Origin: Amphiscolops sp. MND2022
Taxonomy: Eukaryota
Reading direction: 5' to 3'
Length of the DNA stretch: 64,000 nucleotides
NCBI GenBank assembly: GCA_964187785.1
Contig: OZ076409.1
Location: forward strand, 74,774,001 to 74,838,000
Each line of letters begins with the position of its first letter. The first letter of the stretch is position 1. The position numbers were made by a program, and so were the translations under genes. The notes below the pieces were generated by a model that was not told the origin of the DNA, ran no database searches, and was given only the letters and a program-made list of their open reading frames with translations. Of this stretch, positions 685-64,000 are shown piece after piece.

Positions 685-691
685 CTAGGTG
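685..691 (+). other. Invariant junction core CTAGGTG (first of 38); candidate recombination or nicking site
   Basis: Present at every unit boundary; left and right flanks assort largely independently. Confidence 0.85.
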
Positions 692-1970
692 CCGGGATTT
701 CTATTCGATAAAGTATGTGGCGCGTGTGGGTAGGGCCCCTGGCGCGCTCTTGGGTATGGTGTTCACCAGCTAGGAAACAGGGGTCGATTTTTCGGGATCT
801 CCTAAACTAGCCACACGATTTGGCTGAAATTTGGCACACGTACTCCCCTCGGCATGGTGAAGATGATTCCCTACTAGCGTTTTGCTCGCAAAATTTTTTT
901 TGTTGTCCAAAATAACGGTTTTTGGGGGAAAATTTTGAACTTTTTTTAAATTTCATCTTATATCTCGCCACGGGTTTACGCTAGCGCTTCAAAACCCTGC
1001 TAAAGAAAGCTTGCAAACTGTCTCAGGAATGCGGTGTGAAGTTTTCAGCTCAATCGGACTTAAACTCAGGGAGATATAGCGTTTTTCCGGAGCGGGGGGG
1101 TTTCATTTTTCTAACGGTCCAGCTTATCTTAGCCATTTTTTCGAAAATGTACTCGCCTAAAGACCTCCCCTGGCCGGTTTTATTCCCAGCAAAACCATTT
1201 GGCCCTAAATACGGAGTTTCAGCGTTCCAGCATTCCCGGGCGAAAAGTTGTGAGACTTAGAAAATTTCAAAAATTTTCAAATTTTTTTTTTCCGTTTTCC
1301 GCCCTCCCCCCCGAGGGGAAAAGACCCCCCAACCAGTAATTTGAGTGAATTCATGTGGAAAGGCCATGTTTAGAGGAGAAAAATCCCGTTTAAATTGTCT
1401 TTTTATCTTTATTCAACGTTGACTTATGACGTTTTGAAGGTGATGTTTGGAGGTGTGAAGCACGTGAAAAGTAAACGTTATGAGTTTTTATCTGATCTGA
1501 AAGCCATTGAGATGCAACCTGTTTTGCTCAAAACGTAATTCATATCAGTTTGGTAGTCAATCAACACCCTTTGTTGTCATTTGACATCTTTTTTTGTTGA
1601 TATAAGAAAAAATTTCGTGTATTTATTCATTTTTTTCTCATCAAATAACTTGAAACAGTTGAGTACATTCCATCCCCCCTTCACGGGGGAGATGAGAATG
1701 TACTCGCAAAAAGCCCCGAACTACGACCCTTACCTTCCTGAGCTACGCAGTATAAAGATTGCATATTGGTTCCGACATTTTGATAGAGTTATATCTTGGT
1801 AATCTGTCTGGGTATGCAGAAAAACCAGCACGTGCTTTTTTATACCAAGTTGCTCACAACGACATTTATTTTATATCAACGCCCCCATATTTATCAACGC
1901 CCCCCGTCCGTGGGCATGCCGAGGCATGCCCTTCGACGACGTATACCAAGATATGTTCGAGCGCGTTAGC
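685..1970 (+). mobile_element. Unit U1, type E, 1286 bp
   Basis: Head CTAGGTGCCGGGATTTCTATTCG; tail palindrome at 1912; similar to U23/U24/U29. Confidence 0.7.
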
Positions 1971-3359
1971 CTAGGTGGTTGGGGCGGTCCCCAGAACGCA
2001 CAAGGAGGCGCGGGGAGGGTCCTGCGCCGACGTAGAATAATTTCATATAATACTAGTATCCTACATGGGTGTTTTAGAGGCGATTTTGGAATCTAACCGT
2101 AGGATTTGGATAATTTTTTGCATGCGGCCATAACTCGAAATTCTAAGAACTTTTTCCTACTGTCATTTTCCCCGCAAATTTTTTTTTGTTGACTCACGGC
2201 CAAAAAACCGGAAATAACGTCCTTTTTAGACGTTATATCCGAAGTGTCGTCATAACTTTTTTCCAGGGCATGCTAGCGTTCTCGTTCACTTTTACACTTA
2301 GTTGCAGCATCTCAAAATACAACTGGTGGAAAATTTTGATTGCATTCGGATCACCCCCCACCGAGATAGAAGGGTCCCCCCCTCCAGTTTTACCCCCCAA
2401 ATTTGCAAAATAGCCAATTTTGAGCATGAAGCCGAGGATTTAGCGTACCCGCACCCTCCTGATGTTTTGTTGTACGTATTGGGGTCAATCTGACGACATG
2501 TGTGGTTTTCACCCCCAACCCCCCCTTGGACCGGAAATGACTCTTTTTTGTGTTTTTTGGCAGAATTTAGCCTTTTTCATTATTAGGCAGTCGTTTTAGG
2601 GACTCCTAGCAGGATATCGAAATTGAAATACAACCTGATCACAACCCAGTGACAACATGTTGGCCATTTGGAGGTATCATCATGACCGGAAGTGGGGTCA
2701 ACCCCCCTTTTTGTGACCGCTTTTTGACCTTGTGCACCAAAATGCCAACATCTTGAGGCCTAATGAGGCATTCAAATCTGTACAAAGATAAAATGTTAGA
2801 CAACCGAAGTCCCGGAAGATCTTTAGCATATACCGGAAGTTACCCCCCATGACCGGAAGTTACCCAATGTGACCGGAAATGGTCCAAAAATTAATGTAAA
2901 GTTGAATTTTTCACTATTTCAAGACCACTTAATTGAAACTTTTCAATCTCAAAACTAGCGTACTGGCTTGTTTTGCTGAATTTATGGAAATTGATGAGCT
3001 CTATCGCCCCCGATAGCCTTCGAAGTTGACCTTGCGTCAACTTTGTAGGCTATCGATAAAGAAAAATGAACAACAAAGTACATTGTTGCTCTCGTTTTTT
3101 TCCCGTTGTTTTTCCTCAAACATTCTTGAGACATATACATGGCCGTTAGTTGAAATCAATGTTTAGCCCATGTTATAGCTGGAGCAGCGAAGCGTTACAC
3201 AGACTAGTGTGGTTTTGAAATCACACTATTTAAATTAACAACTGACCGTCTTAGTCAACTCCACACATTCATACCAACGCCCACCGTCTGTGGGCATGCC
3301 GAGGCATGCCCTTCGACGACGTATGACGAATCCACTCCAACGACACCCGCAGTCCTCAG
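1971..3359 (+). mobile_element. Unit U2, type A, 1389 bp
   Basis: Head CTAGGTGGTTGGGGCGGTCCCCAG; CGATAGCC hairpin at 3011-3055; tail ...GTCCTCAG. Confidence 0.7.
2832..2880 (+). repeat. Triad of ACCGGAAG/AT motifs at exactly 20-bp spacing (example; A, B and C units)
   Basis: ACCGGAA at 2832, 2852, 2872; also 6428/6448/6468 and 4262(ATCGGAA)/4282/4302. Confidence 0.75.
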
Positions 3360-5552
3360 CTAGGTGGAGGTTATTTTATAATAATTAATGTGTTTTTTTC
3401 CGGAGTTTGTGGCTTTGGAAAAAACAAAAGGCGAGAAATCGTGCACTCCGGGCTGAACCGTATACACTCAAATTTCGCCCATTTTTTATACGATCTCGAA
3501 ACCCAGCCGTACGATTTTGCGCAAAATTTGCATGCGGCTACAAAATCAGATTCTAAGAACTATTTCCTGGTGACATTTTTTTGAAATTTTTGTGTACGTT
3601 TCCCCCCCGCCCCCTAAAGGGGTCACTTTTCCCCACTTTTGCACTTATGAGTCAAATTCTCAAACCTGGTGGATCTGAGCGTATTCCTGACGGGGACAAC
3701 TTTTAACAAGCGCTCCTCAGTCGACCTTTTTGACTTTTTACTTTGGTGGTACGTTCACCCCCCGAGGAGGAAATTGCGTTTTTGTGACTTCCGGTCGAGG
3801 CTTTTTTCACCCAAAAATTAGAATTAAGCCAGTTTTGAGCAGGAAGGAGTGGATTTAAAGTGCCTGTACCCTGCTAAAAATTTGTTGGGCTTGTAGCGAT
3901 ATATCTCATACCAAGTCTGGTTTTCACCCCCAAACCCCCCTTGAGACCAAAATTCACCCAAAGTTTTTTACCTCTGTTTGTAGTTTTTTTACCGAATATC
4001 GTCATTTCCATGGGTACGGAGTTGAATTAGGGGCTCCTAATAGGGTACCGATGTTCAAGTACACTTGCAGTGCAACTGAGTGACCCTTTTTGGGCCTCTC
4101 CTGTGTTCGGCAAGGACCGGAAGTGGTGTAACCCCCCCTTTTTTGACGTTTGTTGACCTTGAGACTCGCGCTTAGATGACGTTTATGTCGCGCAAATCCT
4201 ACAAACAAGTATTAGGATGTCATGCTAGCCAACTAGAGAGCAGTAAGGGAAACAATAATATATCGGAAGTAACCCCCCGTGACCGGAAGTTGTCATTTTT
4301 GACCGGAAATGGTCCAAAACCTAGCGTTAAAGCAGTTTTTCATTGCTTTTAAAGTCAACTTCTTACATTTTTCAATCTGCGCGAGCTTTTCTTCAGGTTC
4401 GTTTTTGTTGCCGGTGCACAGCAACGAATATACAACTGTAAAATTTTCGCTATAAAATCGTCGGAGAGAGAAATAACGGAATATTTGGAGTTTTTTTCGA
4501 AAATATTAGTCTATATCTGTCATTTTTACCCAATGTTATTCAACAGTAGAACCACAGATTTTATTCTCTGCCCAAAAATATGCCTAACAAATTCACCTGT
4601 CCCTTTGGTTGCAGTTTGAGCATTCTAGCTTTTTCTGGTCACAAGTAAGGGGACTTGAAAAAGTTTCAAAAACTTTTCCGAAAAATTTTTCTAAACGTCA
4701 TGTCTCCCAAAGTTAAGAAACTTCCGCACAACTAGGATTACAAGTGAATGCACGTGGTAAGACCTCTAATTGGAGAGAAAAATTCAGTTTAGAACGTCTC
4801 TTTATCGTAACGTGACGTTAAGAGAAGTTGCTTTGAATGCGAGCTTGATGAGACGTCGAGAAGTAACAGTGTGTAAATGGAACCTATGTCTCGACAAATA
4901 CTCATCGGAATACATGAGATGAACCCCAATTACCCTCAATTTCAGTTGCCTAGTACAACAACGTCTTCCAAGGACCCTTTAATCTTTTTGATAAGCGTTG
5001 AAGTCATCAATAGATTGAGTTCGCAAGAAACAATTGAGTACATTCTCATCTCTCCCCATCGGGTGAGATGAGAATGTTTTTGCTGAAAGCCAGGTACTAC
5101 GGCCCAATTTTGTTTCATTGCGACGCATTCTGTGCTTTAGCACATAGATACTTTTATTCCGTCTCACTTTTTGTATACACTCTGATTTGTTGTTATGAAT
5201 TTCTCGTCATTACTTTACATAAACTAATTACCATAAAACTTTAACGTCAAAGCCACATTCATTTAGACACCCACCATTCCGTAGGTATGCCGAGGTATGC
5301 CATTCGAAGATGTAGGTCAAACGCAAATGCGATAAAAATAGTGCTGAAAATCGGAAACAGTGACAAACAATTTTGACTTTTTGATATTTGTTAGGTTTTC
5401 ATATGGAACTTACACATCACTGACAATTCAAAACATTCCAGCTGACGCTCACATACAAACATCAACGCCCACCGTCTGTGGGCATGCCGAGGCATGCCCT
5501 TCGACGACGTATAGCAAATTCCTTTAATATCTACACCCAATTGCGGTAGCTG
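3360..5552 (+). mobile_element. Unit U3, type B, 2193 bp
   Basis: Head CTAGGTGGAGGTTATTTTATA; near-identical to U18. Confidence 0.7.
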
Positions 5553-40742: not shown

Positions 40743-42030
40743 CTAGGTGCCGGGATTTCTATTCGATAAAGTATGTGGCGCGCCTTGGGTAGGGTCCCTT
40801 GCGCGCTCTTGGGTATGGTGTTCACCAGCTAGGAAACAGGGGTCGATTTTTCGGGATCTCCTAAACTAGCCACACGATTTGGCTGAAATTTGGCACACGT
40901 ACTCCCCTCGGCACGGTGAAGATGATTTCCTACTGACGTTTTTCCCGCAAAATTTTTTTTGTTGTCCAAAATAACGGTTTTTGGGGTAAAATTTTGAACT
41001 TTTTTTAAATTTCATCTTATATCTCGCCACCGGTTTACGCTAGCGCTTCAAAACCCTGCTAAAGAAAGCTTGCAAACTGTCTCAGGAATGCGGTGTGAAA
41101 TTTTCAGCTCAATCGGACTTAAACTCGGGGAGATATAGCGTTTTTCCGGAGCGGGGGGGTTTCATTTTTCTAACGGTCCAGCTTATCTTTGCCATTTTTT
41201 CGAAAATGTACTCGCCTAAAGACCTCCCCTGGCCGGTTTTATTCCCAGCAAAACCATTTGGCCCTAAATACGGAGTTTCAGCGTTCCAGCATTCCCGGGC
41301 GAAAAGTTGTGGGACTTAGAAAAGTTCAAAAATTTTCAAAAAATTTTTTTTCCGTTATTTGGGCCCCCAAAGTGGGGGAAAAGACCCCCCAACCAGTAAG
41401 GCAAGTGAATGCATGTGCAAAGCCCTTGTTTAGAGGAGAAAAATGCCGTTTAGAACGTCTTTTTATCTTGGCTCAACGTTGACTTATGACGTTTTGAAGG
41501 TGATGTTTGGAGGTGTAAAGCACGTGAATAGTAAACGTTTTGAGTATTTATCTGATCTGAAAGCCATTGAGATGCAATATGGTTTGCTCAAAACGTAATT
41601 CATGGCAGTTTGGCAATCAATCAACAACCTTTGTTGTCGTTTGACATACTTTTTTGTTGTTATAATAAAAAATTTTGTGTATTTATTCATTTTTTTCTCA
41701 TCAAATAACTTGAAACAGTTGAGTACATTCCATCCCCCCTTCCGGGGGAGATGAGAATGTACTCGCAAAAAGCACCGAACTACGGCCCTTACCTTCCCGA
41801 GCTACGCAGTATAAGGATTACATATTGGTTCCGACGTTTTCATAGAGTTAAATCTTGGTAATCTGTCTGGATATGCAGAAAAACCAGCACGTGCTTTTTT
41901 ATACCAAGTTGCTTACAACGACAATTATTTTATATCAACGCCCCCATATTTATCAACGCCCACCGTCCGTGGGCATGCCGAGGCATGCCCTTCGACGACG
42001 TATACCAAGATATACATCGAGCGCGTTAGC
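40743..42030 (+). mobile_element. Unit U23, type E, 1288 bp
   Basis: E head; tail ATATACATCGAGCGCGTTAGC. Confidence 0.7.
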
Positions 42031-43318
42031 CTAGGTGCCGGGATTTCTATTCGATAAAGTATGTGGCGCGCCTTGGGTAGGGTCCCTTGCGCGCTCTTGG
42101 GTATGGTGTTCACCAGCTAGGAAATAGGGGTCGATTTTTCGGGATCTCCTAAACTAGCCACACGATTTGGCTGAAATTTGGCACACGTACTCCCCTCGGC
42201 ATGGTGAAGATGATTCCCTACTAGCGTTTTGCTCGCAAAATTTTTTTTGTTGTCCAAAATAACGGTTTTTGGGGTAAAATTTTGAATTTTTTTTAAATTT
42301 CATCTTATATCTCGCCACGGGTTTACGCTAGCGCTTCAAAAACTTGCTAAAGAAAGCTTGCAAACTGTCTCAGGAATGCGGTGTGAAATTTTCAGCACAA
42401 TCGGACTTAAACTCAAGGAGATATAGCGTTTTTCCGGAGCGGGGGGGTTTCATTTTTCTAACGGTCCAGCTTATCTTAGCCATTTTTTCGAAAATGTACT
42501 CGCCTAAAGACCTCCCCTGGCCGGTTTTATTCCCAGCAAAACCATTTGGCCCTAAATACGGAGTTTCAGCGTTCCAGCATTCCCGGGCGAAAAGTTGTGG
42601 GACTTAGAAAAATTCAAAAATTTTCAAAAAAATTTTTTTCCGTTTTCCGCCCTCCCCCCCTAGGGGAAAAGACCCCCCAACCAGTAATTTGAGTGAATTC
42701 ATGTGGAAAGGCCATGTTTAGAGGAGAAAAATCCCGTTTAAATCGTCTTTTTATCTTTATTCAACGTTGACTTATGACGTTTTGAAGGTGATGTTTGGAA
42801 GGTGTGAAGCACGTGAAAAGTAAACGTTATGAGTATTTATCTGATCTGAAAGCCATTGAGATGCAATCTGTTTTGCTCAAAACGTAATTCATATCCGTTT
42901 GGTAGTCAATCAACACCCTTTGTTGTCATTTGACATCTTTTTTTGTTGATATAAAAAAAAATTTGTGTATTTATTCATTTTTTTCTCATCAAATAACTTG
43001 AAACAGTTGAGTACATTCCATCCCCCCTTCACGGGGGAGATGAGAATGTACTCGCAAAAAGCCCCAAACTACGGTCCTTACCTTCCTGAGCTACGCAGTA
43101 TAAAGATTGCATATTGGTTCCGACATTTTGATAGAGTTATATCTTGGTAATCTGTCTGGGTATGCAGAAAAACCAGCACGTGCTTTTTTATACCAAGTTG
43201 CTCACAACGACATTTATTTTATATCAACGCCCCCATATTTATCAACGCCCACCGTCCGTGGGCATGCCGAGGCATGCCCTTCGACGACGTATACCAAGAT
43301 ATGTTCGAGCGCGTTAGC
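42031..43318 (+). mobile_element. Unit U24, type E, 1288 bp
   Basis: Close to U1; tail ATATGTTCGAGCGCGTTAGC. Confidence 0.7.
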
Positions 43319-48093: not shown

Positions 48094-50471
48094 CTAGGTG
48101 GTCGGGGCGCTCTCCCAACCTCTTCCGCCGCCTCGGGGAGGGTCCTGATTGGCGGCACCCCTTATGGAAAACTTACTGTTAGAAACGCACCAGTGTAATG
48201 CTGATTTCGAAAACCACCCGTACGATTTTGCTCAAATTTTGCATGTAGCTCCCAAATTCCAATACAAGAACTAATTCCTACTGCCATTTTTCCGGGAAAA
48301 CTCAAAAAGTTGGTCAAAAATGACATTTTCTGAGTGAAAAATGGCCATTTTTTGACTTTTTTATTTTTGATCGGCTATAACTTTTTCCAGGGTGCTCGGA
48401 TCGAAAAAAGTTTGTATAGGTAAAGTTGTTTGGCACTTCGGGTAGAACTCGTAGACAAATTTTGGTTGAGATCGGATGAAAATTGACTGAGAAATAACCG
48501 AAAAACCATCGATTTTTTGAAAAAAATTTTGACACACTAGTATGACTCTGCCGTTTTTCGGCCAAAGTTCTTTCTAGAACCTCGTCTAAAGTCCTCCCCT
48601 GGCTGAATTACCTCCCAGCAAAACCATTTGGCCCATTTGCCGAAGTTTCAGCGTTCCAGCATTCCCCGGGTAAAAGATAAATGACTTAGAATTTTTACAA
48701 AAAAATTTCAAAAAAAAATTTTTTTTCTTCAAGCTTCCCAAAGTCAAGGAACTTCCACACAACTAGTATTGCAAGTGAATGCATGTGGAAAGTGCTTGAA
48801 TAGACGAGAAAAATGAGCTATAGAACGACTCTGTAGCTTAACCTGACGTTGACTTATGACAATTTGAGTGCGTGCTTGCTATGTGGTGAAATTGAGGAAC
48901 AACCTAAAATGAAAGCTAAGTCTGATCTAAAACTTACCGAATTGCTTTTATTCAGCCCCAAAGCTGTTCAATTGCCGCTGTGTAGTGCAGCAACACTATC
49001 CAAGGCTTTTTAGGACGTTTTTAAGATGTCATTATGTTCTTTTTGGACAGTTTTTTTTGTACAAATAGGACTTTATTTTTCGGGACCTAACACTTTTTGC
49101 CAAAAAAGTCAAACTTCGTCCACACAACTTAGATTGCAAGTGAATGCATGCGGAGAGTGCATGAAGTGATGAGGAAAATGAGCTATAGAACGCCCGTTTC
49201 CGACAACTTGACATGGACTTATAAGAGTTTGAAAAATCACAAAAAAAATGAACAACAATTCACTAACAGTGAGTTTGTAGTAAATGGCCCATATTTCCAT
49301 ACACAAGATTCTCAGCACAATTCTATACCTTTTCGTTTTTGTTGTCCGTGATTGTGCAACAAATAAGTATTGTTAAAAGTTTCTGTAAAACATCGCCGGA
49401 AAGAGAAAAATGCGGAGTTTATGAGTAATTTTGTTTGAAAAATGACAAAATAGTCTATCTCTGCCGTTTCAGCACAAATTTTTTAAAAAAAGACGCCCAG
49501 TAGGTAACCCATGGGCTAATTTCGTCTCAACAAAACGGTTGGGGTCATTTGCCGCAGTTTTAGCTTTATAGCATTCTCCGGGTAAAAGTTGTTGAACTTA
49601 GAAAATTTTTGAAATTTTTTCAAATTTTTTTTTAACTTCAGGCGGCCCAAAGTCAAGAAACTTCCACACAACTAGGATTGCAAGTAGATGCATGTGGAAA
49701 GCCCAGTAATTGGGGAGAAAAATGCCGTTTAGAACGTCTCTTTATCGTAACTTGATGTTGACTTATGATTCTTTAAATGGGAGCTTGATTTGAGGTTAAG
49801 AAGTCAAAGTGTGTAAATGGAACGTAAGTCTGGTCAAAAACTCATTGGAATACATGCAATGAACCTCAACTTATCCTCAATTACAGTTGTCTAGTGCAAA
49901 GGTCTTTCAAAGTTGTTTCACTTCTTTTGATAAGTGTTGATGGTATAAACCATCAGTTATAGAGAAACACGTAAGTACATTCTCATCTCTCCCCATCGGG
50001 GGAGATGAGAATGTACTCACCAAAGGTCAAAACTACTAAATGCCTTTTTTCTGTACCATTTTATGTCACTGTCGAAACAAACATAAACAAATTAGTTTCC
50101 GACTCCTCCTTGGGGTTTTGGTTTGACTTCTGTAAAAAAAAGGGTACGAGGACTTGGAGATCTTTTAAGTGTTCCAAAAGAGACCTCCTATTTCACACCG
50201 TGGAAAACTTGAAGACATTTGTCATGAAATCACCTACTAGGATTCTCTCTGAGTACGCAAGTTCAATAAGTAACACATTTTATCTTCCATATTTGCTCCG
50301 ATGACCAGGATTGGAAACTAAATTAACCCAAGGTACTTAGCCAAAACGAGCAATACCAACTTTTGATTGAAAACCTCATCACAGTTTTTCTTTGAAAATT
50401 ACCTTCATTGACTTCTCAATTTATCAACTCAATCTCCTTAAGCGGCCCTATTTTGACACAAGCCTGCAGCG
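48094..50471 (+). mobile_element. Unit U27, type I, 2378 bp
   Basis: Three ACACAACT modules and a long hairpin at ~49973. The ~450 bp tail is unrelated to other units and has no palindrome. Confidence 0.65.
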
Positions 50472-51757
50472 CTAGGTGGCCGTGTCTTTTCGACGTGCTT
50501 TTGCATTGAGGAGTGGGTAGGGCCCCGCGACGACCTAGAAGAATTGGATGCTCACCGAAACGTGCAGAATTCTACGAGATCTCATAGTTTGAGCCATACG
50601 ATTTTTCTGAAATTTGGCATGTGGCCTGGAATTGGTGAGTAGGTAAAACGTGTAGAAGGTAATTTTTCCCAAATTCCACTGTGAGAGGAGATATGGGCAA
50701 ATAACGGACCCAAAAATGGCAAAAATGCACATTTTTCAACTTTGTCAGCCAATATCTCTTTTCCAGGTGCCCGTAGCGTTCCGCACGTGGACATCAAAAT
50801 TGCTCAGCGCTGTTGGAGGAGTGCGTGGACAAATTTTGGTTTAAATCGGACTTAAACTTGACGAGAAATTAACGGTTTTTGGGCGTTTCCGGGGTAAATT
50901 TTTTAACGGTCCAGCTTATCTTTGCCATTTTTTCGAAAATGTACATGCCTAAAGGCCTCCCCCTGGCCGAATTTACTCCCAGCAAACCCATTTGACCCTA
51001 AATACGGAGTTTCAGCGTTCCAGCATTCCGGGGCGGAAAGTTGTGGGACTTGGAAAAATTTCAAAATTTTTCCAAAAATTTTTTTCCCGTTTTCCGGGCC
51101 CCCAATGAAGGGGAACGACCCCCCAACCAGTATTTTGAGTGAATTCATGTGGAACGCCCATGTTTGGAGGAGAAAAATGCCGTTTAGCACATCTTTTTAT
51201 CTTAACTTGACATTGACTTATGACGTTTTGAATGTGATGTTAGGATATATGAAGCATGTTAAAAGTTGAAGTTTTGAGTCTTTATCTCATCGGAAAACCA
51301 TTGAGATACAAGCAGTTTTGCTAAAAACGATTTTCATTGTAGGTTAGCAGAGTATTAGTACACTTTGATGTCATTTGAGTATTTTTTTCTTCTCTATAAT
51401 AACTGTTTTTATGTATTTATTCCAATTTATCTCATCTTTTAACATCAAGCAGTTGAGTACATTTCATCTCCCTTTCGGGGGAGATGAGAATGTACTCGCT
51501 AAAAACCTAATGCTATGGCGCCAAAGTTTGGATGGGAAGTTTTCTATGCTTTGAAAAATGTTATTTTTAATTACTTGATTTTTTAAAACAATAATTAACA
51601 TGAAGTACATTACTTGCTCCTACTACTACTACTACCACCATACATCTCTAACGTCAACGCCCCCTGCTTGCATCAACGCCCCATCGTCCGTGGGCATGCC
51701 GAGGCATGCCCTTCGACGACGTATGCCAAATGCCCAGTGCCACGCAGTCTTTCCCCG
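50472..51757 (+). mobile_element. Unit U28, type J, 1286 bp
   Basis: Head CTAGGTGGCCGTGTC; E/F-like middle; terminal palindrome present. Confidence 0.7.
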
Positions 51758-53046
51758 CTAGGTGCCGGGATTTCTATTCGATAAAGTATGTGGCGCGCCT
51801 TGGGTAGGGTCCCTTGCGCGCTCTTGGGTATGGTGTTCACCAGCTAGGAAATAGGGGTCGATTTTTCGGGATCTCCTAAACTAGCCACACGATTTGGCTG
51901 AAATTTGGCACACGTACTCCCCTCGGCACGGTGAAGATGATTTCCTACTGACGTTTTTCCCGCAAAATTTTTTTTGTTGTCCAAAATAACGGTTTTTGGG
52001 GTAAAATTTTGAATTTTTTTTAAATTTTATCTTATATCTCGCCACCGGTTTACGCTAGCGCTTCAGAACCTTGCTAAAGAAAGTTTGCAAACTGTCTCAG
52101 GAATGCTGCGTGAAAAATTCAGCTCAATCGGACTTAAACTCGGGGAGATATAGAGTTTTTCCGGAGCGGGGGGGTTTCATTTTTCTAACGGTCCAGCTTA
52201 TCTTTGCCATTTTTTCGAAAATGCACTCGCCTAAAGGCCTCCCCTGGCCGGTTTTATTCCCAGCAAAACCATTTGGCCCTAAATACGGAGTTTCAGCGTT
52301 CCAGCATTCCCGGGCGAAAAGTTGTGGGACTTAGAAAAGTTCAAAAATTTTCAAAAAATTTTTTTTCCGTTATTTGGGCCCCCAAAGTGGGGGAAAAGAC
52401 CCCCCAACCAGTAAGGCAAGTGAATGCATGTGCAAAGCCCTAGTTTAGAGGAGAAAAATGCCGTTTAGAACGTCTTTTTATCTTGGCTCAATGTTGACTT
52501 ATGACGTTTTGAAGGTGATGTTTGGAGGTGTAAAGCACGTGAAAAGTAAACGTTATGAGTATTTATCTGATCTGAAAGCCATTGAGATGCAACCTGTTTT
52601 GCTCAAAACGTAATTCATATCAGTTTGGTAGTCAATCAACACCCTTTGTTGTCATTTGACATACTTTTTTTGTTGATATAATAAAAAATTTCGTGTATTT
52701 ATTCATTTTTTTCTCATCAAATAACTTGAAACAGTTGAGTACATTCCATCCCCCCTTCACGGGGGAGATGAGAATGTACTCGCAGAAAGCCCCGAACTAC
52801 GGCCCTTACCTTCCTGAGCTACGCAGTATAAAGATTGTATATTGGTTCCGACATTTTGATAGAGTTATATCTTGGTAATCTGTCTGGGTATGCAGAAAAA
52901 CCAGCACGTGCTTTTTTATACCAAGTTGCCCACAACGACATTTATTTTATATCAACGCCCCAATATTTATCAACGCCCCCCGTCCGTGGGCATGCCGAGG
53001 CATGCCCTTCGACGACGTATACCAAGATATGTTCGAGCGCGTTAGC
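51758..53046 (+). mobile_element. Unit U29, type E, 1289 bp
   Basis: U23-like 5' part with a U24-like 3' part. Confidence 0.7.
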
Positions 53047-54332
53047 CTAGGTGCCGGGATTTCCATTCGATAAGGAATTCTGCGCGTGTGGGTAGGGCCC
53101 CTGGCGCGCTCCTGTGTTTTCGGTTTTCCTACTCCAAATTCACACCCCAGTTATCTCCGATCTCGTAAACTATCCATACGATTTGGCTGAAATTTGGCAC
53201 ACGTACCCCCCTCGGCACGGTGAAGATGATTTCCTACTGACGTTTTTCCCGCTAAACATTTTTTGTTGACCAAAATAACGGTTTTTGGGGTAAAATTTTC
53301 AACTTTTTTTAAATTTTATCTTATATCTCGCCACGGGTACACGCTAGCGCTTCCAAACCTTGCTGACGAAAGTTTGCAAACTGTCTCAGGAATGCTGTGT
53401 GAAATTTTCAGCTCAATCGGACTTAAACTCGAGGAGATATAGCGTTTTTCCGGAGCGGGGGGGTTTCATTTTTCTAACGGTCCAGCTTATCTTTGCCATT
53501 TTTTCGAAAATGCACTCGCCTAAAGGCCTCCCCTGGCCGGTTTTATTCCCAGCAAAACCATTTGGCCCTAAATACGGAGTTTCAGCGTTCCAGCATTCCC
53601 GGGCGAAAAGTTGTGGGACTTAGAAAATTTCAAAAATTTTCAAAAATTTTTTTTCCGTTATTTGGGCCCCCAAAGTGGGGGAAAAGACCCCCCAACCAGT
53701 AAAGCAAGTGAAAGCATGTGCAAAGCCCTTGTTTAGAGGAGAAAAATGCCGTTTAGAACGTCTTTTTATCTTGGCTCAACGTTGACTTATGACGTTTTGA
53801 AGGTGATGTTTGGAGGTGTAAATCACGTGAATAGTAAACGTTATGAGTATTTATCTGATCTGAAAGCCATTGAGATGCAATATGGTTTGCTCAAAACGTA
53901 ATTCATGGCAGTTTGGCAATCAATCAACACCCTTTGTTGTCGTTTGACATACTTTTTTGTTGTTATAATAAAAATTTTGTGTATTTGTTCATTTTTTTCT
54001 CATCAAATAACTTGAAACAGTTGAGTACATTCCATCCCCCCTTCCGGGGGAGATGAGAATGTACTCGCAAAAAGCAGCGAATTACGGCCCTTACCTTCCC
54101 GAGCTACGCAGTATAAGGATTACATATTGGTTCCGACATTTTCATAGAGTTAAATCTTGGTAATCTGTCTGGATATGCAGAAAAATCAGCACGTGCCTTT
54201 TAATACCAAGTTGCTCACAACGACAATTATTTTATATCAACGCCCCCATATTTATCAACGCCCCCCGTCCGTGGGCATGCCGAGGCATGCCCTTCGACGA
54301 CGTATACCAAGATATACATCGAGCGCGTTAGC
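53047..54332 (+). mobile_element. Unit U30, type E', 1286 bp
   Basis: E body with a variant head; 3' half matches U0. Confidence 0.7.
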
Positions 54333-55645
54333 CTAGGTGCCCGGATTTCTATTCATTAAAGTATGTTGCGCGTGTGGGTAGGGCCCCTGGCGCGCTCTTG
54401 TGTCCCTGTTCTCATAACTGCAATTTCCGGCAGCATTCTGAGCGATTTTCTAAACTATCCATACGATTCGGCTGAAATTTGGCATGTGAGTTCCTATGAC
54501 AGTTCTAAGAAACATTTCCTACTGGCGTTTTGCCCGGAAAATTTTTTTTGTTGACTTATAACGGTTTTTTTGGCCAAAAAATGCAATTTTTTCAAAAATT
54601 TTTTTTTTCGGAGCCCATATCTTTTTTCAGGGTGCCCGGAGCGGGACGCGTTAAACTGATTATAAACTCTACGGTTCATGGGCTTTACGGAGAACCTAGG
54701 CTCGTTTCGATCGGACAAATAGTCTTGGAGATATAACGGCATTTTTTGGGAATTTTTTGGAAATTTTTCTAACGGTCCAGCTTATCTTTGCCATTTTTTC
54801 GAAAATGTACTCGCCTAAAGGCCTCCCCTGGCCGGTTTTAATCCCAGCAAAACCATTTGGCCCTAAATACGGAGTTTCAGCGTTCCAGCATTCCCGGGCG
54901 AAAAGTTGTGGGACTTAGAAAAATTTCAAAATTTTTCAAAATTTTTTTTTCCGTTTTCCGCCCTCCCCCCCGAGGGGAAAAGACCCCCCAACCAGTAATT
55001 TGAGGGAATTCATGTGGAAAGGCCATGTTTAGAGGAGAAAAATGCCGTTTAGATCGTCTTTTTATTCTAACCTGTCGTTGACTTATGTTGTTTTGAAGGT
55101 GATGTTTGGATGTGTGAAGCATGTGAAAAGGTAATTTATTGTGTCTTTAGCTCTTCTAAAAGCCATTGAGATACACGGTGTGCGACTCAGAACGTGTTTA
55201 GTTCTAATTTAACAATGCATCAACACATTTTTGTGTCTTTTGACTTGATTAAAAAATGTTTTCTTCCCAAAACTTTAAAAAAAATCAACAATTTTTCATC
55301 TTTTTTTCTGATCTCATGACTCGAAACAGTTGAGTACATTCCATCTCCCTTCCCGGGGAGATGAGAATGTACTCTTTAGAGACCAGGTACTACAGTACTT
55401 ACCTTCCCCGAGCAACGCCCCATAAAAATTGCGTTTTGATCCAGATATTTTGACATACTTTTATCTTTGTAATTTGACTGGAAATGAAGAAAATGCCGCA
55501 CGTGCTCTTTTATATCAAGTATCTTAACAACGCCATCTCTTTTACGTCAACGCCCCATACTTTACACCAACGCCCCCCGTCCGTGGGCATGCCGAGGCAT
55601 GCCCTTCGACGACGTGCACCAAAATATGCTCCCAAGCGCGTTAGC
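54333..55645 (+). mobile_element. Unit U31, type K, 1313 bp
   Basis: Head CTAGGTGCCCGGATTTCTATTCATT; close to U37. Confidence 0.7.
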
Positions 55646-56931
55646 CTAGGTGCCAAAACCCAATGGTTTGCCAAACACTTCGAGGGCGGGGTAGGGCCCC
55701 CAGCCCGAGTCAAAAAGTCGAAGACTAACAACTTAAGGCCAATACTAAAACCTCCTATCGATCTCGGAAACGGCCCATCAGATTTTGCTCAAATTTTGCA
55801 TACGGCTTCCTCTAGCGATTCTAAGAACTAATCCCTACTGACGTTTTGCCCGGAAAAATCAAAAAGTGGGTCAAAATCTTAGATTTTTGGTCGAAAAATG
55901 GCGTTTTTTTGGAAAATTTTTTTTCAAGAGCCCATATCTCGCTCCCAGGTGCCCGTAGCGACCAGACCTCGGACGGTACTATTGCTGGGCACTTCGTAAG
56001 GAGCCCGTAGACAAATTTTCGTCCAGATCGGATAAAAATTGATAGAGTAATAGCCGCCGATTTGGCGAATTTTTTCGACATTTTTCGAAATCCCAGTCTA
56101 TCTCTGCCGTTTTTTGCCCAGATTTTTTTCCAGGACCTCTCCTAAAGGCCTCCCCTGGCCGGTTTACCTCCCAGAAAAACCATTTGGCCCTTTTGCCGCA
56201 GTTTCAGCGTTCCAGGATTCCCCGGGTAAAAGTAAAATGTCTTAGAATTTTTTCGAAAAATTTTCAAAATTTTTTTTTTCAACTTCAGGCCTCCCAAAGT
56301 CAAGAAACGTCCACACAACTAGTATTGCAAGTGGATGCATGTGGAAAGTGCTCGAATAGACGAGAAAAATGAGCTATTATAAAGTTCTGTAGCTTAACCT
56401 GACGTTGACTTATGACAATTTTAGTGTGAGCTTGCTATATGGTAAAAAATTTCAAAAATTGAAAATCGAAGCTAAGTCTCATCCAAAACTCATCGGAATA
56501 CGTTCAATCCATACCAAAGCGGTTTATTTCCAGCTGTCCAGTGCAGCAACACCATTAAAGGTCATTTAACCCACATTTATAAGTTTTGACACCGTCTTAT
56601 CCATCCGAAAGTTCGAAACAGTTAAGTACATTCCATCTCCCCTCCGTGGGAGATGGTAATGTACTCGCAAAAAGCCAAGTACTATCGCCCCATTCTACCC
56701 GTAGTGGTGCTAGAAATGCAGTAGCGGGAGCGCCAGGCTGTTTAAAGTAGCCTTTACGGGTGTTGTGACTATGCATTACAAGTCTAACTATGTTACTGAA
56801 CGTGAAAAAATTGTTTCAATCCCAGAATTTTTTTTTCAACTTTAGTATGTCACCAATAAACATATATCCATCTTTCCTACTACAACCACCCTACCACCCG
56901 GCCCCTCGTATCTTTGTTCAACCGTACACGT
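55646..56931 (+). mobile_element. Unit U32, type L, 1286 bp
   Basis: Head CTAGGTGCCAAAACCC; alternative tail TTGTTCAACCGTACACGT. Confidence 0.7.
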
Positions 56932-58196
56932 CTAGGTGCCGGGATTACTATTCGATAAGGAATTTTGCGCGGTTGGGTAGGGCCCCGTGAGCGCGCCAGG
57001 GGATAGTGTTAGAACAACAAGGATTTGGGCATCAGTTGGGAGCGATTTTCTAAACTATCCGTACGATTTGGCTGAAATTTGGCATGAAGCTTCCTTGGAA
57101 CATTCTAAGAACAAATCCCTACTGGCGTTTTGCCGGGAAAAATCGAAATGTTGGTCAAAAATGCAATTTTCCGACCAAATTTTCGGGTAAAATTTTTTTG
57201 AAACGTTATATCTCGCCACAGGGTCACGCTAGCGCCTCGCAACCTATGATCGGGTTTTGTAGGGCGTTGTCTGTAGAACACGTATGCCAAATTTGGTGGC
57301 GATCGGACTTAAACTCAGCGAGTTAGAGCGATTTTTTAGGTGCATTTTTTGACATTTTTTGCGTTTGCCGATTTATCTCTGCCGTTTTTTGCCCAGATTT
57401 TTTTTGAGACCCTCTCCTAAAGACCTCCCCTGGCCGGTTTACCTCCCAGCAAAACCATTTGGCCCTAAATACGAAGTTTCAGCGTTCTAGCATTCCCGGG
57501 CGAAAAGTTGTGGGACTTAGAAAATTTTTTTGGAAACGCAAAATGTGTAAAGTCAACTTCTGGCCTCCCAAAGTCAAGGAACTTCCACACAACTAGTATT
57601 GCAAGTGAATGCATGTGGAGAGTACTTGAATAGACGAGGAAAATGAGCTGTAGAACGTCTCTTTAGCTTAACCTGACGTTGACTTATGACCTTTTGAGTG
57701 TGAGCTTGCTATGCGAGAAAAAATGCAAAACATGAAAATGGAAGCAAAGTATCGTCGAAAACCCATCATAAGATGTTCAACTCATCCTAGAGCGGTTTAT
57801 TTACAGTTGTTCAGTAGAGCAACACCATTCATGATCATGTGACCCATTTTTATGGGGAATGAGATTGTCTTATTCATCCGATAGCCCAAAGCAGTTGAGT
57901 ACATTCCATCTCACCTCCGTGTGAGATGAGAATGTACTAGCTAAAGTCCAGGTACTACAGCCCATATTGGTTTTATGCGACGCTCTGTATGCAAATGAGC
58001 ATACTTGAAATTTTTTTAGCTGATATTTTTTTAAACTGCACTTTGACTCTGACCTGACATACTGAATATTTAGTCCTTATAACATACACATAATTAACGT
58101 CAACGCCCCATCCTTGCATCAACGCCCACCGTCTGTGGGCATGCCGAGGCATGCCCTTCGACGACGCGCACCAAAATATTCCACGAGCGCGTTAGC
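56932..58196 (+). mobile_element. Unit U33, type M, 1265 bp
   Basis: Head CTAGGTGCCGGGATTACTATTCG; terminal palindrome present. Confidence 0.7.
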
Positions 58197-59470
58197 CTAG
58201 GTGCCGGTGTTTTCTTCACATTTGAGGAAGTTGCGCGTGTGGGTAGGGCCCCTGGCGCGCTCCGTTGTCCCTGTGTTTACATCTTAGAAAATTTGAGTAA
58301 AAAATTGGGATCTCGAAAACTGGCCACACGATTTGGCTGAAATTTTGCATACGGCTCCCTATGACAGTTGTAAGAACTAATCCCTAGTGGCGTTTTGCCC
58401 GGAAAATTTTTTTTGTTGACTTATTCACATTTTTAGGGTCAAAAAATAGCGTTTTTTTGAAAAAATTTTTTTTCAGAGACAATTACTCGAAACTGGTGCA
58501 CCCAGCTCAGTAACGCCTAGCTGATTTATTGTTGGGCATTTCATGAGGAGTCCGTATACAAATTTTCGTCCAAATTGGAATAAAATTGATTGAGAAATAA
58601 CTGAAAATTTGAGGAATTTTTTTGGAAATTTTCGAAAACCCAGTCTATCTCTGCCGTTTTTTGCCCAGATTTTTTTTGAGACACTCTCCTAAAGACCTCC
58701 CCTGGCCGGTTTACATCCCAGCAAAACCATTTGGCCCTAAATACGAAGTTTCAGCGTTCTAGCATTCTCGGGCAAAAAGTTGTGGGACTTAGAATTAATT
58801 TTTGGAAACGCAAAATGTGTAAAGTCAACTTCAGGCCTCCCAAAGTCAAAGAACTTCCACACAACTAGGATTGCAAGTGGATGCATGTGGAAAGTACTGG
58901 GATAGACGAGAAAAATGAGCTATAGAACAACTCTGTAGCTTAACTTGACGTTGACTTATGATGTTTTGAATGTGTGCTTGCTAAGGGGTCCCAAATTGAA
59001 AATTTTTAAAGAAAGTTAATATCGTCAAAAATTCATCGGAAAGCCTGCAATATACAGTAGAGCGGGTTCAATTGTAGCTGAATAATGCATCAACACCGTT
59101 CAAGGTCTTTTAACTCAGTTTCAAAATTTTTGACACTGTAATCTTCATCCGAGAGCACAAAACAGTTGAGTACATTCCATCTCCCTTTCGGGGGAGATGA
59201 GAATGTACTCGCTAAAGAACATGTACTACAGCCAATTTTTGTTTTTATGCGAGGTCATTCTATGCTATTGCACACGAACACTTTAGTTTTGACAAACATA
59301 TGTCTTTACATGCTGAATCTTACCTTACCTTTACTTTACGTTTTTGTACAAACTACTACAACAACTCACCCCTTACGTCAACGTCCCATACTTTAAATCA
59401 ACGCCCACCGTCCGTGGGCATGCCGAGGCATGCCCTTCGACGACGTATGCCCTCTCAAACGCGGTAGCCG
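58197..59470 (+). mobile_element. Unit U34, type N, 1274 bp
   Basis: Head CTAGGTGCCGGTGTTTTC; terminal palindrome at 59416. Confidence 0.7.
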
Positions 59471-60733
59471 CTAGGTGGTCGGTATTCTTTACTACCTCAT
59501 GCTTTGAGGGCGGGGTAGGGCCCCCTGCCCGATCCTAATCCTTAGGATTTTAAACATAAGGCCAATAATACGGATTTTGGCGATTTCGAAAACTAACCTT
59601 ACGATTTGGCTGAAATTTTGCATGCGGCTCCCTATGACAGATATAAGAACAAATCCCTACTGGCATTTTGCTGGGAAAATTCAGTTTTTGGGTCAAAATC
59701 ACTATTTTAGGTCCAAAAAATGGCGTTTTTTCGGAAAATTTTTTTTCAAGAGCCCATATCTCGCTCCCAGGTGCTCGGAGCCGGTCGCATGTGGACGTCG
59801 ATATTGCTAGGCACTTCGTAAGGAGTCCGTAGACAAATTTTCGTACAGATCGGATGAAAATTGACTTAGTAATAAAAAACTTTGATTTGCATTTTTTCGA
59901 AAATTTATGAAATCCCAGTGTATCTCTGCCGTTTTTTGCCCAGATTTTTTTCCAGGACCTCTCCTAAAGGCCTCCCCTGGCCGGTTTACCTCCCAGAAAA
60001 ACCATTTAGCCCTTTTGCCGCAGTTTCAGCGTTCCAGGATTCCCCGGGTAAAAGATAAATGACTTAGAATTTTTTCAAAAATTTTTCAATTTTTTTTTTT
60101 CAACTTCAAGCCTCCCAAAGTCAAGAAACTTCCACACAACTAGTATTGCAAGTGGATGCATGTGGAAAGTGCTCGAATAGACGAGAAAAATGAGCTATTA
60201 TAAACCTCTGTAGCTCAACCTGACGTTGACTTATGACAATTTTAGTGAGAGCTTGCTATATGGTAAAAATTCCAAAAATTGAAAATCGAAGCTAAGTCTC
60301 ATCCAAAACTCATCGGAATACGTTCAATCCATCCCAAAGCGGTTTAATTCCAGCTACATAGTGCAGCAACACCATTCAAGACCTTTTGACCCATTTTTAT
60401 AACTTTTGACACCGTCTTATCCATTCGAAAGTTGAAGCAGTTAAGTACATTCCATCTCCCCTCCGTGGGAGATGGTAATGTACGCGCAAAAAGCCAAGTA
60501 CTATTGCCCTTTTTCTACATGGAGTGGACCTAGAAATGCATTAGCGTGAGCTCCACGCTGCTTGCAGTAGCCCTTACAGGTGTTGTACCTTTGTTACAAA
60601 ACTAACTATGTTACTAATCATAAAAAAAATGTTACAATCGAAAAATTATTTTCATTAATTATATTTACACGTTTTGTTGTCAATTACAATAACTACAGCT
60701 ACCGCCCTGGCCTGATTGTTCAACCGTGCACGT
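59471..60733 (+). mobile_element. Unit U35, type O, 1263 bp
   Basis: Head CTAGGTGGTCGGTATTCTTT; alternative tail TTGTTCAACCGTGCACGT. Confidence 0.7.
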
Positions 60734-62024
60734 CTAGGTGCCAATCCCCCCCGGGATGCCACAGCTTCGAGGGCGGGGTAGGGCCCCCTGCCCGAGTCCA
60801 AAACCAACGGCGCTAAACTTCGCGCCAGAAACGTAAGGCGATATAGGATTCTAGAGGCGATTTTCTAAACGAGCCATACGATTTGGCTCAAATTTTGCAT
60901 GCGGCTTCCTCTAGCGATTCTAAGAACTTTTCCCTACTACCATTTTGCCCGGAAAATTTTTTTTGTTGACTTATAGACAATTTTAGGTGCCAAAAATGGC
61001 GTTTTTTCGAAAAATTTTTTTTCAAGAGCCCATATCTCGCTCCCAGGTGCTCGGAGCGGGTCGCATGTGGACGTCAATATTGCTAGGCACTTCGTAAGGA
61101 GTCCGTAGACAAATTTTCGTACAGATCGGATGAAAATTGACTTAGTAATAAAAAACTTTGATTTGCATTTTTTCGAAAATTTCTGAAAACCCAGTCTATC
61201 TCTGCCGTTTTTTGCCCAGATTTTTTTCCAGGACCTCTCCTAAAGGCCTCCCCTGGCCGGTTTACCTCCCAGAAAAACCATTTGGCCCTTTTGCCGCAGT
61301 TTCAGCGTTCCAGGATTCCCCGGGTAAAAGTAAAATGTCTTAGAATTTTTTCGAAAAATTTTCAAAAAATTTTTTTTCAACTTCAGGCCTCCCAAAGTCA
61401 AGAAACGTCCACACAACTAGTATTGCAAGTGGATGCATGTTGAAAGTGCTCGAATAGACGAGAAAAATGAGCTATTATAAAGTTCTGTAGCTTAACCTGA
61501 CGTTGACTTATGACAATTTTAGTGTGAGCTTGCTATGTGAGAAAAAATTTCAAAAATTGAAAATCGAAGCTAAGTCTCATCCAAAACTCATCGGAATACG
61601 TTCAATCCATACCAAAGCGGTTTGTTCCCAGTTGTAGAGTGCAGCAACACCATTCAAGGTCATTTGACCCACTTTAATAGGTTTTGACTTTGTCTTATCC
61701 ATCCGAAAATTCGAAACAGTTAAGTACATTCCATCTCCCCTCCGTGGGAGATGGTAATGTACTCGCAAAAAGCCAAGTATAACCGCCCTATTCTACCCGT
61801 AGTGGTGCTAGAAGAGCAGTAGCGTGAGCTCCAGGTTTGCAGTAGTCTCTATGTGTTATAATTATATTTTTCATAGCTAAAAATCTTACTAAACGTGATA
61901 AAAAAATTACATCACTCAAAATTTTTTCAAATATTATTATATGTCCCCAATTGACGCACGTCAACTATTTCACTACAACCACCCTACCACCCGGCCTCTC
62001 GTATCTTTGTTCAACCGTACACGT
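60734..62024 (+). mobile_element. Unit U36, type P, 1291 bp
   Basis: Head CTAGGTGCCAATCCCC; O-like middle; L-like tail. Confidence 0.7.
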
Positions 62025-63340
62025 CTAGGTGCCCGGATTTCTATTCATTAAAGTATGTTGCGCGTGTGGGTAGGGCCCCTGGCGCGCTCTTGTGTCCCTG
62101 TTCTCATAACTGCAATTTCCGGCAGCATTCTGAGCGATTTTCTAAACTATCCATACGATTCGGCTGAAATTTGGCATGTGAGTTCCTATGACAGTTCTAA
62201 GAAACATTTCCTACTGGCGTTTTGCCCGGAAAATTTTTTTTGTTGACTTATAACGGTTTTTTTGGCCAAAAAATGCGATTTTTTCAAAAAAAATTTTTTT
62301 CGGAGCCCATATCTTTTTTCAGGGTGCCCGGAGCGGGACGCGTTAAACTGATTATAAACTCTACGGTTCATGGGCTTTACGGAGAACCTAGGCTCGTTTC
62401 GATCGGACAAATAGTCTTGGAGATATAACGGCATTTTTTGAGAATTTTTTGGAAATTTTTCTAACGGTCCAGCTTATCTTTGCCATTTTTTCGAAAATGT
62501 ACTCGCCTAAAGGCCTCCCCTGGCCGGTTTTAATCCCAGCAAAACCATTTGGCCCTAAATACGGAGTTTCAGCGTTCCAGCATTCCCGGGCGAAAAGTTG
62601 TGGGACTTAGAAAAATTTCAAAATTTTTCAAAAATTTTTTTTCCGTTTTCCGCCCTCCCCCCCGAGGGGAAAAGACCCCCCAACCAGTAATTTGAGTGAA
62701 TTCATGTGGAAAGGCCATGTTTAGAGAAGAAAAATGCCGTTTAGATCGTCTTTTTATTTTAACCTGTCGTTGACTTATGTTGTTTTGAAGGTGATGTTTG
62801 GATGTGTGAAGCATGTGAAAAGGTAATTTATTGTGTCTTTAGCTCTTCTAAAAGTCATTGAGATACACGGTGTGTGACTCAGAAAGTGTTTAATTCTAAT
62901 TTAGCAATGCATCAACACTTTTTTGTGTCTTTTGACTCTGTTTTAAAAAATTTTTCCGACTAAAATCAAAAATTATTTATAATTATTCACATTTTTTTTC
63001 TGATCTCATGACTCGAAACAGTTGAGTACATTCCATCTCCCTTCACGGGGGAGATGAGAATGTACTCTTTAGAGACCAGGTACTACAGTACTTACCTTCC
63101 CCGAGCAACGCCCCATAAAAATTGCGTTTTGATCCAGATATTTTGACATAATTTTATCTTTGTAATTTGACTGGAAATGAAGAAAATGCCGCACGTGCTC
63201 TTTTATATCAAGTATCTTAACAACGCCATCTCTTTTACGTCAACGCCCCATAGTTCACATCAACGCCCACCGTCCGTGGGCATGCCGAGGCATGCCCTTC
63301 GACGACGTATACCAAGATATACTCCCGAGCGCGGTAGCCG
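62025..63340 (+). mobile_element. Unit U37, type K, 1316 bp
   Basis: Close to U31 with different neighbours. Confidence 0.7.
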
Positions 63341-64000
63341 CTAGGTGGTCGGTATTCTTTACTACCTCATGCTTTGAGGGCGGGGTAGGGCCCCCTGCCC
63401 GATCCTAATCCTTAGGATTTTAAACATAAGGCCAATAATACGGATTTTGGCGATTTCGAAAACTAACCTTACGATTTGGCTGAAATTTTGCATGCGGCTC
63501 CCTATGACAAATATAAGAACAAATCCCTAGTGGCATTTTGCTGGGAAAATTCAGTTTTTGGGTCAAAATCACTATTTTATGTCCAAAAAAAGGCGTTTTT
63601 TCGGAAAATTTTTTTTCAAGAGCCCATATCTCGCTCCCAGGTGCTCGGAGCGGGTCGCATGTGGACGTCGATATTGCTAGGCACTTCGTAAGGAGTCCGT
63701 AGACAAATTTTCGTACAGATCGGATGAAAATTGACTTAGTAATAAAAAACTTTGATTTGCATTTTTTCGAAAATTTATATAATCCCAGTGTATCTCTGCC
63801 GTTTTTTGCCCAGATTTTTTTCCAGGACCTCTCCTAAAGGCCTCCCCTGGCCGGTTTACCTCGCAGAAAAACCATTTGGCCCGTTTGCCGCAGTTTCAGC
63901 GTTCCAGGATTCCCCGGGTAAAAGTAAAATGACTTAGAATTTTTTCGAAAAATTTTCAAATTTTTTTTTTTCAACTTCAGACCTCCCAAAGTCAAGAAAC
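63341..64000 (+). mobile_element. Unit U38 (partial), type O
   Basis: Near-identical to the first 660 bp of U35. Confidence 0.7.

Follow-up and report, generated by a model that had tools for sequence, protein, structure and literature searches.

A one-way array of mixed non-coding cassettes joined at a 7-bp site in Amphiscolops sp. MND2022, with a ~182-bp internal period and a tendency toward whole-step rearrangement

Non-autonomous Helitrons (HLE1) and Helentrons are non-coding, make no target duplication, and carry CTAG at a boundary together with terminal hairpins; the sections of two papers drawn on here (PMC13085455, PMC4067079) assign a 5′ TC terminus, a 3′ CTRR terminus and insertion between A and T to HLE1, and 12–15-bp subterminal inverted repeats, T-rich ends and a TT target to the Helentron/DINE-1/HINE group (HLE2). 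Replitrons, which are eukaryotic HUH Y1 elements, combine a short terminal direct repeat with oriented insertion, a terminal hairpin and non-autonomous partners, and the relevant part of their description places them in plants, algae, stramenopiles and probably cryptophytes and haptophytes (PMC10288648). Cryptons, in the portion of PMC3212892 used here, lack inverted repeats, bear a short direct repeat of 4–6 bp at both termini, and have a proposed circular intermediate. KolobokP, a marine-invertebrate element, occurs at two constrained repeat lengths of ~450 and ~660 bp and forms multimers, possibly via circles (PMC9587614, in excerpt), and nucleosome-ladder extrachromosomal circular DNA (eccDNA) is described, in the excerpt of PMC11660679 used, with size steps of ~180 bp. 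Here, we analysed a stretch of 64,000 nucleotides (hereafter, the window) from Amphiscolops sp. MND2022 (GenBank assembly GCA_964187785.1, contig OZ076409.1, positions 74,774,001 to 74,838,000 of the forward strand), which carries a head-to-tail array of non-coding units joined at the sequence CTAGGTG. The units are homologous to one another, are shuffled unit by unit with breakpoints at the joint, and carry their universal signals at the 5′ end; they also contain a ~182-bp lattice of A/T tracts phased to that end. We put at about an even chance the reading that they are non-autonomous, self-targeting cassettes of one ancestry whose rearrangements tend to keep nucleosome register.

CTAGGTG occurs 38 times on the + strand of the window and not once on the − strand, from 685 (the first copy, 685–691) to 63341. 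These joints, invariant in 38 of 38 cases, delimit 37 complete units at 685–63340 on the + strand, which clustering at 80% identity sorts into 14 types, in the order ABCEDBFDBCDDDGEBBCDDHCAADDIJAAKLMNLLK (the letters are those of the present analysis and differ from those of a preliminary description of the locus). Partial units fill both edges of the window, A-like at 1–684 and L-like at 63341–64000, so the array extends beyond it on both sides. Five size classes, reproduced exactly from the preliminary description, comprise one unit of 1071 bp, 15 of 1263–1316 bp (nine of them at 1286–1291), seven of 1382–1399 bp, four of 2189–2193 bp and ten of 2375–2399 bp, and distinct types do share lengths as had been reported (1286–1289 bp in types A, F, J and L; 2378 bp in I and D). 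The 1.29-kb class holds types A, F, G, J, K, L, M and N (for example 685–1970, + strand, equal to 7.0 periods of ~183 bp); the 1.39-kb class, types B and E (1971–3359, +, 7.6 periods and off the lattice, with 2–3 copies of the motif CCGGAAGT); and the 2.19-kb class, type C (3360–5552, +), whose total equals 12.0 × 183 bp and whose interior offset lies ~20 bp off the lattice. The 2.38-kb class is exemplified by unit 19 of type D (2380 bp; 32719–35098, +), which we mapped segment by segment on the 1.29-kb profile, and by unit 27 of type I (2378 bp; 48094–50471, +). Type H, the single 1071-bp unit (unit 21; 37481–38551, +), has only its first ~250 bp in common with the other types and fits six periods only roughly, at 5.85 × 183 bp, as the preliminary description had allowed. 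GC content of the window is 41% and CpG is not depleted (observed/expected 0.98). The longest stop-to-stop frame in the window spans 155 codons, with 31 frames of 100–155 codons, and neither tRNA genes nor Rfam families at gathering scores were detected in it.

The sequence signals common to all types are only three, all at the 5′ end: the joint itself, a hairpin (H2) and a conserved block of 46 bp. Variation begins abruptly on either side of the joint, which is preceded by G in 17, C in 13 and T in 8 of the 38 copies, never by A, and followed by G in 27 and C in 11; this pattern points to CTAGGTG as the probable crossover or nick site. H2 (in unit 2 at 2007–2028, +) surrounds the motif GGG(A/T)GGG(C/T)CC, scores z<-1 in 12 of 16 representative units, and shows changes on both sides at three of six consensus pairs, with the outer pairs covarying; in type C a 13-bp stem is retained at the same place with unrelated sequence. 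The 46-bp block (2080–2125, +; unit position ~108–155) is present as a single copy in 16/16 representative units. A further short, sequence-variable stem, H1, lies ~9–26 nt past the joint (in unit 2 at 1980–1993, +); it reaches z<-1 in 6/16 representative units against 3/16 in a control region and was not recovered by RNAalifold on the MAFFT alignment.

How the units move can be read from their nearest copies. There are 67 same-type pairs, 11 of them at least 95% identical, and these 11 overlap (three B pairs and three A pairs share members), so that they represent fewer events than 11. The head of the next unit is only 42–70% identical in 11/11 near-identical pairs, and the tail of the upstream unit only 45–58% identical in nine. 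When the final 40 nt of each of the 30 multi-copy units are compared, the best match is a unit of the same type for 25. Tails thus travel with their own bodies, which sets the exchange point past the tail, inside CTAGGTG; since a 7-bp core is too short for homologous recombination, a site-specific enzyme is probably at work. On these grounds, the units probably move singly by site-specific insertion. Swapped tails and a mosaic of identity along copies indicate that ordinary recombination is active too. Types are also sorted in space: the last ten units (50472–64000) all belong to the 1.29-kb class, and B and E are confined to units 2–17, which suggests local or time-ordered growth. An artefact of rolling-circle amplification was considered and rejected, because it would give identical runs and not mixed types, and even the closest pairs still differ by 0.5%. 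Kinetoplast minicircles or organelle circles were likewise set aside, the unit bodies being homologous families with a nucleosome-scale period. One public sequencing run (share 0.06), compared with 35099–42037, yielded 24 short pieces (two at ≥99% and six at 95–99% identity) without joints, and is uninformative on circles.

Under the cassette reading, a unit would leave as a copy and enter, alone, the CTAGGTG joint of another unit already in place; repeated, this would build an array that is mixed in type and single in direction. The reading presumes a circular intermediate, as well as a helper enzyme whose gene lies elsewhere. If that enzyme belongs to the HUH class, it would nick within the joint, displace the + strand, stop at the origin of the next unit and close the circle, whose own joint would then be transferred into a resident joint. 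For the rolling-circle step, an analogy is replicational release from tandem origins. A rolling circle that ends at the next origin leaves 3′ ends without a fixed signal, and the 5′ origin, free 3′ end, single orientation and structure-conserved hairpins all fit rolling-circle release. For these reasons, and by analogy, we tentatively prefer an HUH enzyme, at a likelihood a little short of even, over a tyrosine recombinase. The latter, which we regard as somewhat unlikely, would move the same cassettes in Crypton-like fashion, with CTAGGTG as a crossover core common to circle and target. Exactly seven invariant bases with sharp edges, an asymmetric core and one orientation would suit such an enzyme, neither terminal inverted repeats nor a target duplication was found at the units, and the terminal direct repeats and proposed circular intermediate of Cryptons (PMC3212892, in the portion used) run parallel. 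However, tyrosine recombinase sites usually have inverted arms of 11–13 bp flanking the core, according to the same portion of that paper, whereas the left flank is free here, and hairpins kept by covariation point to recognition of a single strand. The array also departs from Cryptons in its repeat of 7 bp rather than 4–6 and in having no recombinase gene within the window, and arrays are not described in the portion of PMC3212892 used.

Comparison with the remaining systems gives a similarly mixed picture. Rolling-circle logic of the Helitron kind matches the 5′ asymmetry of the units, a few tails (units 7 and 14) have a hairpin 11–12 nt before CTAG, and the HLE1 3′ CTRR terminus can be read in the CTAG of 38/38 joints, on either strand. 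The HLE1 5′ TC terminus and A-T insertion find no counterpart: CTAG is followed by G on the + strand (38/38) and by C, G or A, never T, on the − strand. On the + strand the tails reach z<-1 in 5/16 representative units, without a hairpin excess (mean z -0.08), and H1 read on the − strand gives 6/16. Subterminal inverted repeats of the HLE2 kind were not found among 19 units tested, in which the longest exact repeat was 5–9 bp; a 12-bp repeat with one mismatch occurs only in two copies of type D (units 12 and 25) and is probably a C-rich tail set against a G-rich head. CTAGGTG has no T run to correspond to T-rich ends or a TT target, and, unlike Helitrons and Helentrons, the units form a mixed, self-targeted array. 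The direct repeat and hairpin of replitrons do have counterparts in the 7-bp repeat between neighbours and in H2, a weak criterion; mixed arrays are not described in the relevant part of PMC10288648.

For the length classes themselves, KolobokP is the nearest precedent, although 'nucleosome' is a word that PMC9587614 does not use, and it thus draws no link to chromatin. The element differs in its short inverted repeats, target duplications and single-family multimers. The RR..YY termini of Kolobok can be read into the joint as AG..CT; beyond it, 17 of the 19 units tested have no inverted repeat, and no spacer separates the units. The introner reading, for which linker-biased insertion is described (PMC9860276, in excerpt), was rejected: another AG lies within 22 nt upstream of the joint AG in 24/37 units, and unit starts read GTGG or GTGC, none GTRAG. 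Pattern scans of bacterial and archaeal genomes gave no matches, and those of viral contigs gave none for three patterns and eight loci for a looser one, none of them BLAST-similar to the units at E<=0.01. No description of a mixed self-targeted array was found in the open-licence literature; the family may be catalogued in repeat databases.

The preliminary description held the unit lengths to be quantised near ~183 bp largely independently of sequence, and the second half of that claim does not hold. The 15 1.29-kb units, of eight types, align end to end in an alignment of 11 representatives, with BLAST segments between types at 67–86% identity; types B and E are related to each other; type C joins a B-like 5′ half to a D-like 3′ half; and D and I keep their colinearity to ±7 bp across ~1–350 and ~900–1920. 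Homology among types thus leaves five descent groups rather than 37 or 14 independent lengths, and the length classes appear to be mainly an inheritance from shared ancestors. Three of the five class means are no further than 5 bp from a multiple of 182.9 (p=0.22 for random lengths), and all five tested against a free period give p=0.31, so that on length arithmetic by itself a period would not stand. Within the 1.29-kb class, which spreads over 53 bp, the standard deviation of total length is 14.3 against 18.1 expected when the segments between anchors are permuted, and indel compensation is not significant (p=0.16 for eight types, 0.22 for ten units). Descent from a few ancestors with no compensating indels had been named beforehand as the pattern that would speak against quantisation, and the array shows it in part.

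The strongest support for the length-quantisation claim comes from types D and I. Besides their colinear stretches, they contain a block of ~550 bp (~350–900; z 1.3–2.3 against block shuffles) and tails of ~460 bp (z 0.1–1.3) that cannot be aligned, in unit 27 at unit positions 350–900 and at ~50014–50471 of the window; across both blocks the flanks are displaced by no more than 7 bp and the total lengths are equal. Such equality would fit either selection on length or replacement through in-register exchange between phased nucleosome arrays, and sequence cannot separate the two. Type L (units 32, 35 and 36; 55646–56931 and 59471–62024) is without the block that holds a 20-bp palindrome described below, and its tail, barely alignable (z 2.4), is nearly as long as that of other 1.29-kb types (266 against 261 bp). 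Finer steps can also be seen. Columns 163–543 of the 1.29-kb alignment contain segments of 346, 356–358 and 365–367 bp, one helical turn apart, and two segments set B and E apart, by 10 and ~20 bp, with states (39/49 and 131/151) suggestive of helical-turn steps; a search for helical-turn sizing of indels in general gave no clear 10-bp peak in the gap-size histograms.

Evidence for a period that is free of unit length comes from base composition. DNA wrapped in nucleosomes is expected to show a dinucleotide rhythm of ~10 bp together with a period on the scale of the nucleosome repeat, and nucleosome-phased sequences combine ~10.4-bp AA/TT periodicity with a repeat-length-scale period in composition; both are found here, bearing out the periodicities of ~183 and ~10.5 bp that had been proposed for checking. 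Pooled over 15 representative units, the A/T-tract period peaks at 176–184 bp; the spectrum of the whole window has a sharp peak at 183.7 bp; and AA/TT periodicity at 10–10.5 bp stands at z>=4 against shuffles in six of nine representative units. Counted from the 5′ end of D and I, A/T-tract peaks keep to positions near 65 modulo 183 through eight consecutive steps. The ~182-bp lattice is most simply understood as a nucleosome array. Unit length divided by the period measured within the unit (L/P) comes to 13.0–13.1 in D and I; among four 1.29-kb units it is 7.0 in three and 7.26 in the remaining one, while C gives 12.3 (12.0 by length), E 8.25 and H 6.2.

A second line of evidence, likewise free of unit length, comes from paralogy within units, which we sought by profile searches scored against reversed decoys. 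In D, I and C, paralog offsets above the best decoy lie at 168–201, 362–365, 534–555, 729–739, 888–915, 1104 and 1279 bp. Placed on the 1.29-kb profile, type D resolves into segments at 0, +181, +542, +727, +368, +914 and +1091. In unit 19, these comprise 33118–33233 (+177–185, one step of ~182 bp), 33514–33621 (+542, three steps), 33663–33712 (+727, four), 33732–33860 (+368, two), 34029–34875 (+914 to +900, five) and 34960–35082 (+1091–1098, six). Unit 27, of type I, is 1.29-kb-like over 1–936 and carries copies at +366 (49105–49311) and +912 (49399–50036). Segments shorter than 70 bp in the jump alignment were dropped unless present in three D copies, as the reversed control gave such segments too. 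Of nine offsets (six from D/I, +709 in C, and 87 and 103 in B), six are no more than 8 bp away from a multiple of 182 bp, with p=0.008 when the period is left free; the four jumps, taken in place of cumulative offsets, give p=0.013, again with a free period. For the D/I lineage only, these alignments show how the 2.38-kb class grew out of the 1.29-kb class, through duplications and segment replacements at one to six times 182 bp. The whole-lattice steps between the two classes could reflect exchange in register, a weak selective advantage of regular chromatin, or a combination; in-register rearrangement would explain the data without selection.

Several observations weigh against the cassette reading, and against its chromatin component in particular. 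All six on-lattice offsets come from the single D/I lineage and are cumulative, hence non-independent; the remaining ones deviate by -20 bp in C and by +87 and -79 bp in B; and in 1.29-kb, B, E or H units the profile searches gave nothing paralogous within a unit that scored higher than the best decoy. The lattice weakens in the last ~550 bp of D and I. Type B, with its own period of 182.5 bp, has an L/P of 7.61 and so sits about half a step off the lattice, in line with the earlier remark that the ~1390-bp class does not fit. Seven is the best circular harmonic in only four (A/T tracts) to six (AT content) of eight 1.29-kb types. Phase coherence over all 37 units, with one random offset per class, gives p=0.37; units 18–37 alone give p=0.0085, as a subset picked afterwards for being without B and E. 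As for movement, in two of the 11 pairs both members have the same upstream neighbour too, 5/30 tails are closest to another type, H1 is weakly supported, the hairpins show a weak strand bias, the termini are unlike those of canonical Helitrons, and a scan of stop-to-stop frames found no enzyme gene within the window. Whole-step rearrangement is therefore put here as a tendency and not as a rule, the 1.39-kb class breaking it. The proposed link to nucleosomes is supported by the A/T-tract period, the AA/TT rhythm and the offset multiples, and the strict whole-number form of it is not: integer counts suit the 1.29- and 2.38-kb classes, are ambiguous for C, E and H, and fail for B, and the quantisation of class means does not reach significance.

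A stronger version, in which the units are circular minichromosomes and selection for a whole number of nucleosomes (7, 12 or 13) fixes length regardless of sequence, we judge unlikely. It would account directly for the L/P values of D, I and three of the four 1.29-kb units, and for the equal length of D and I in spite of ~1 kb that cannot be aligned; a regression over the three fitting classes has a slope of 182.0 and an intercept of 11 bp, and the excerpt of PMC11660679 cited above gives small circular DNAs sizes in multiples of ~180 bp. Yet chance would bring the intercept to within 20 bp of zero about one time in five, type B has spread in five copies half a step off the lattice, and neither the class means, the compensation values nor the 53-bp spread of the 1.29-kb class agrees with fixed length.

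Alpha-satellite higher-order repeats also come in steps of ~180 bp, and a complex satellite would place the array among higher-order repeats of an ancient ~182-bp monomer, shaped by unequal exchange and conversion only, with neither enzyme nor circles. Faint paralogies at one, three, four and seven steps in D point in this direction, as do local clustering of types, near-identical adjacent pairs (units 19 and 20, 99.5%) and the mosaic identity along copies. Tandem Repeats Finder, however, returned only repeats of 11–20 bp and no monomer, the 1.29-kb class is without paralogy above decoys, and breakpoints fall at the 7-bp joint and not at long homologous blocks, which makes this explanation improbable. 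In contrast to eccDNA and satellites, the steps seen here are fixed in the ancestry of sequence-defined cassettes with a precise joint, and are not those of random fragments or monomers. That a few ancestors produced the classes and the 183-bp fit arose by chance is very unlikely, since, for all that only three of five descent groups fit (p=0.22) and class-level phase over the whole array gives p=0.37, the period recurs in base composition and in duplication offsets.

Apart from the universal 5′ signals, some features are confined to particular types. A long internal inverted repeat with a stem of ~20 bp (1660–1706) occurs in the 1.29-, 2.19- and 2.38-kb classes, and its motif was not found in types B, E and H. 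A 20-bp palindrome, GGGCATGCCGAGGCATGCCC, lies ~60 bp upstream of the 3′ joint (for example 1912–1931) in 32/37 units; it is absent from units 21, 27, 32, 35 and 36, and is thus dispensable for membership of the array. With one deviation, it matches the p53 two-half-site consensus, on which the array would form a dense cluster of predicted p53-family sites. The flanks of the palindrome are conserved, and types C and D have a degenerate second copy ~196 bp upstream. The one match from metagenomes (L001:10001–10024), a 24-bp palindrome between transporter-like genes on a bacterial contig of 63% GC, was taken as chance. The motif CCGGAAGT, presumably ETS-like, is present in 2–4 copies in all 11 units of types B, C and E (for example within 2685–2880) and in none of the other 26. 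The three types that bear it are those off the 182-bp lattice, a coincidence that counts as one event given their common descent; a factor bound at CCGGAAGT could shift nucleosome phase.

That chromatin spacing influences how large repeats and mobile elements become is a long-standing notion, for which the findings provide a countable case: six duplicated segments of one lineage lie at one to six times 182 bp, and a sister class off the lattice acts as an internal control. A mixed array that runs one way and is joined at a 7-bp site points to a site-specific eukaryotic DNA-joining enzyme, and the ends of the units match neither canonical Helitrons nor typical Crypton sites. At its boldest, the locus may belong to a eukaryotic integron-like system, in which gene-free chromatin circles insert only at the 7-bp joint and are resized by whole nucleosomes, a suggestion that we regard as rather doubtful and in which circle or array would need an evenly spaced nucleosome ladder whose register is fixed by the 5′ origin. 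If true, it would amount to a mobile element family whose size spectrum follows the nucleosome repeat length of its host.

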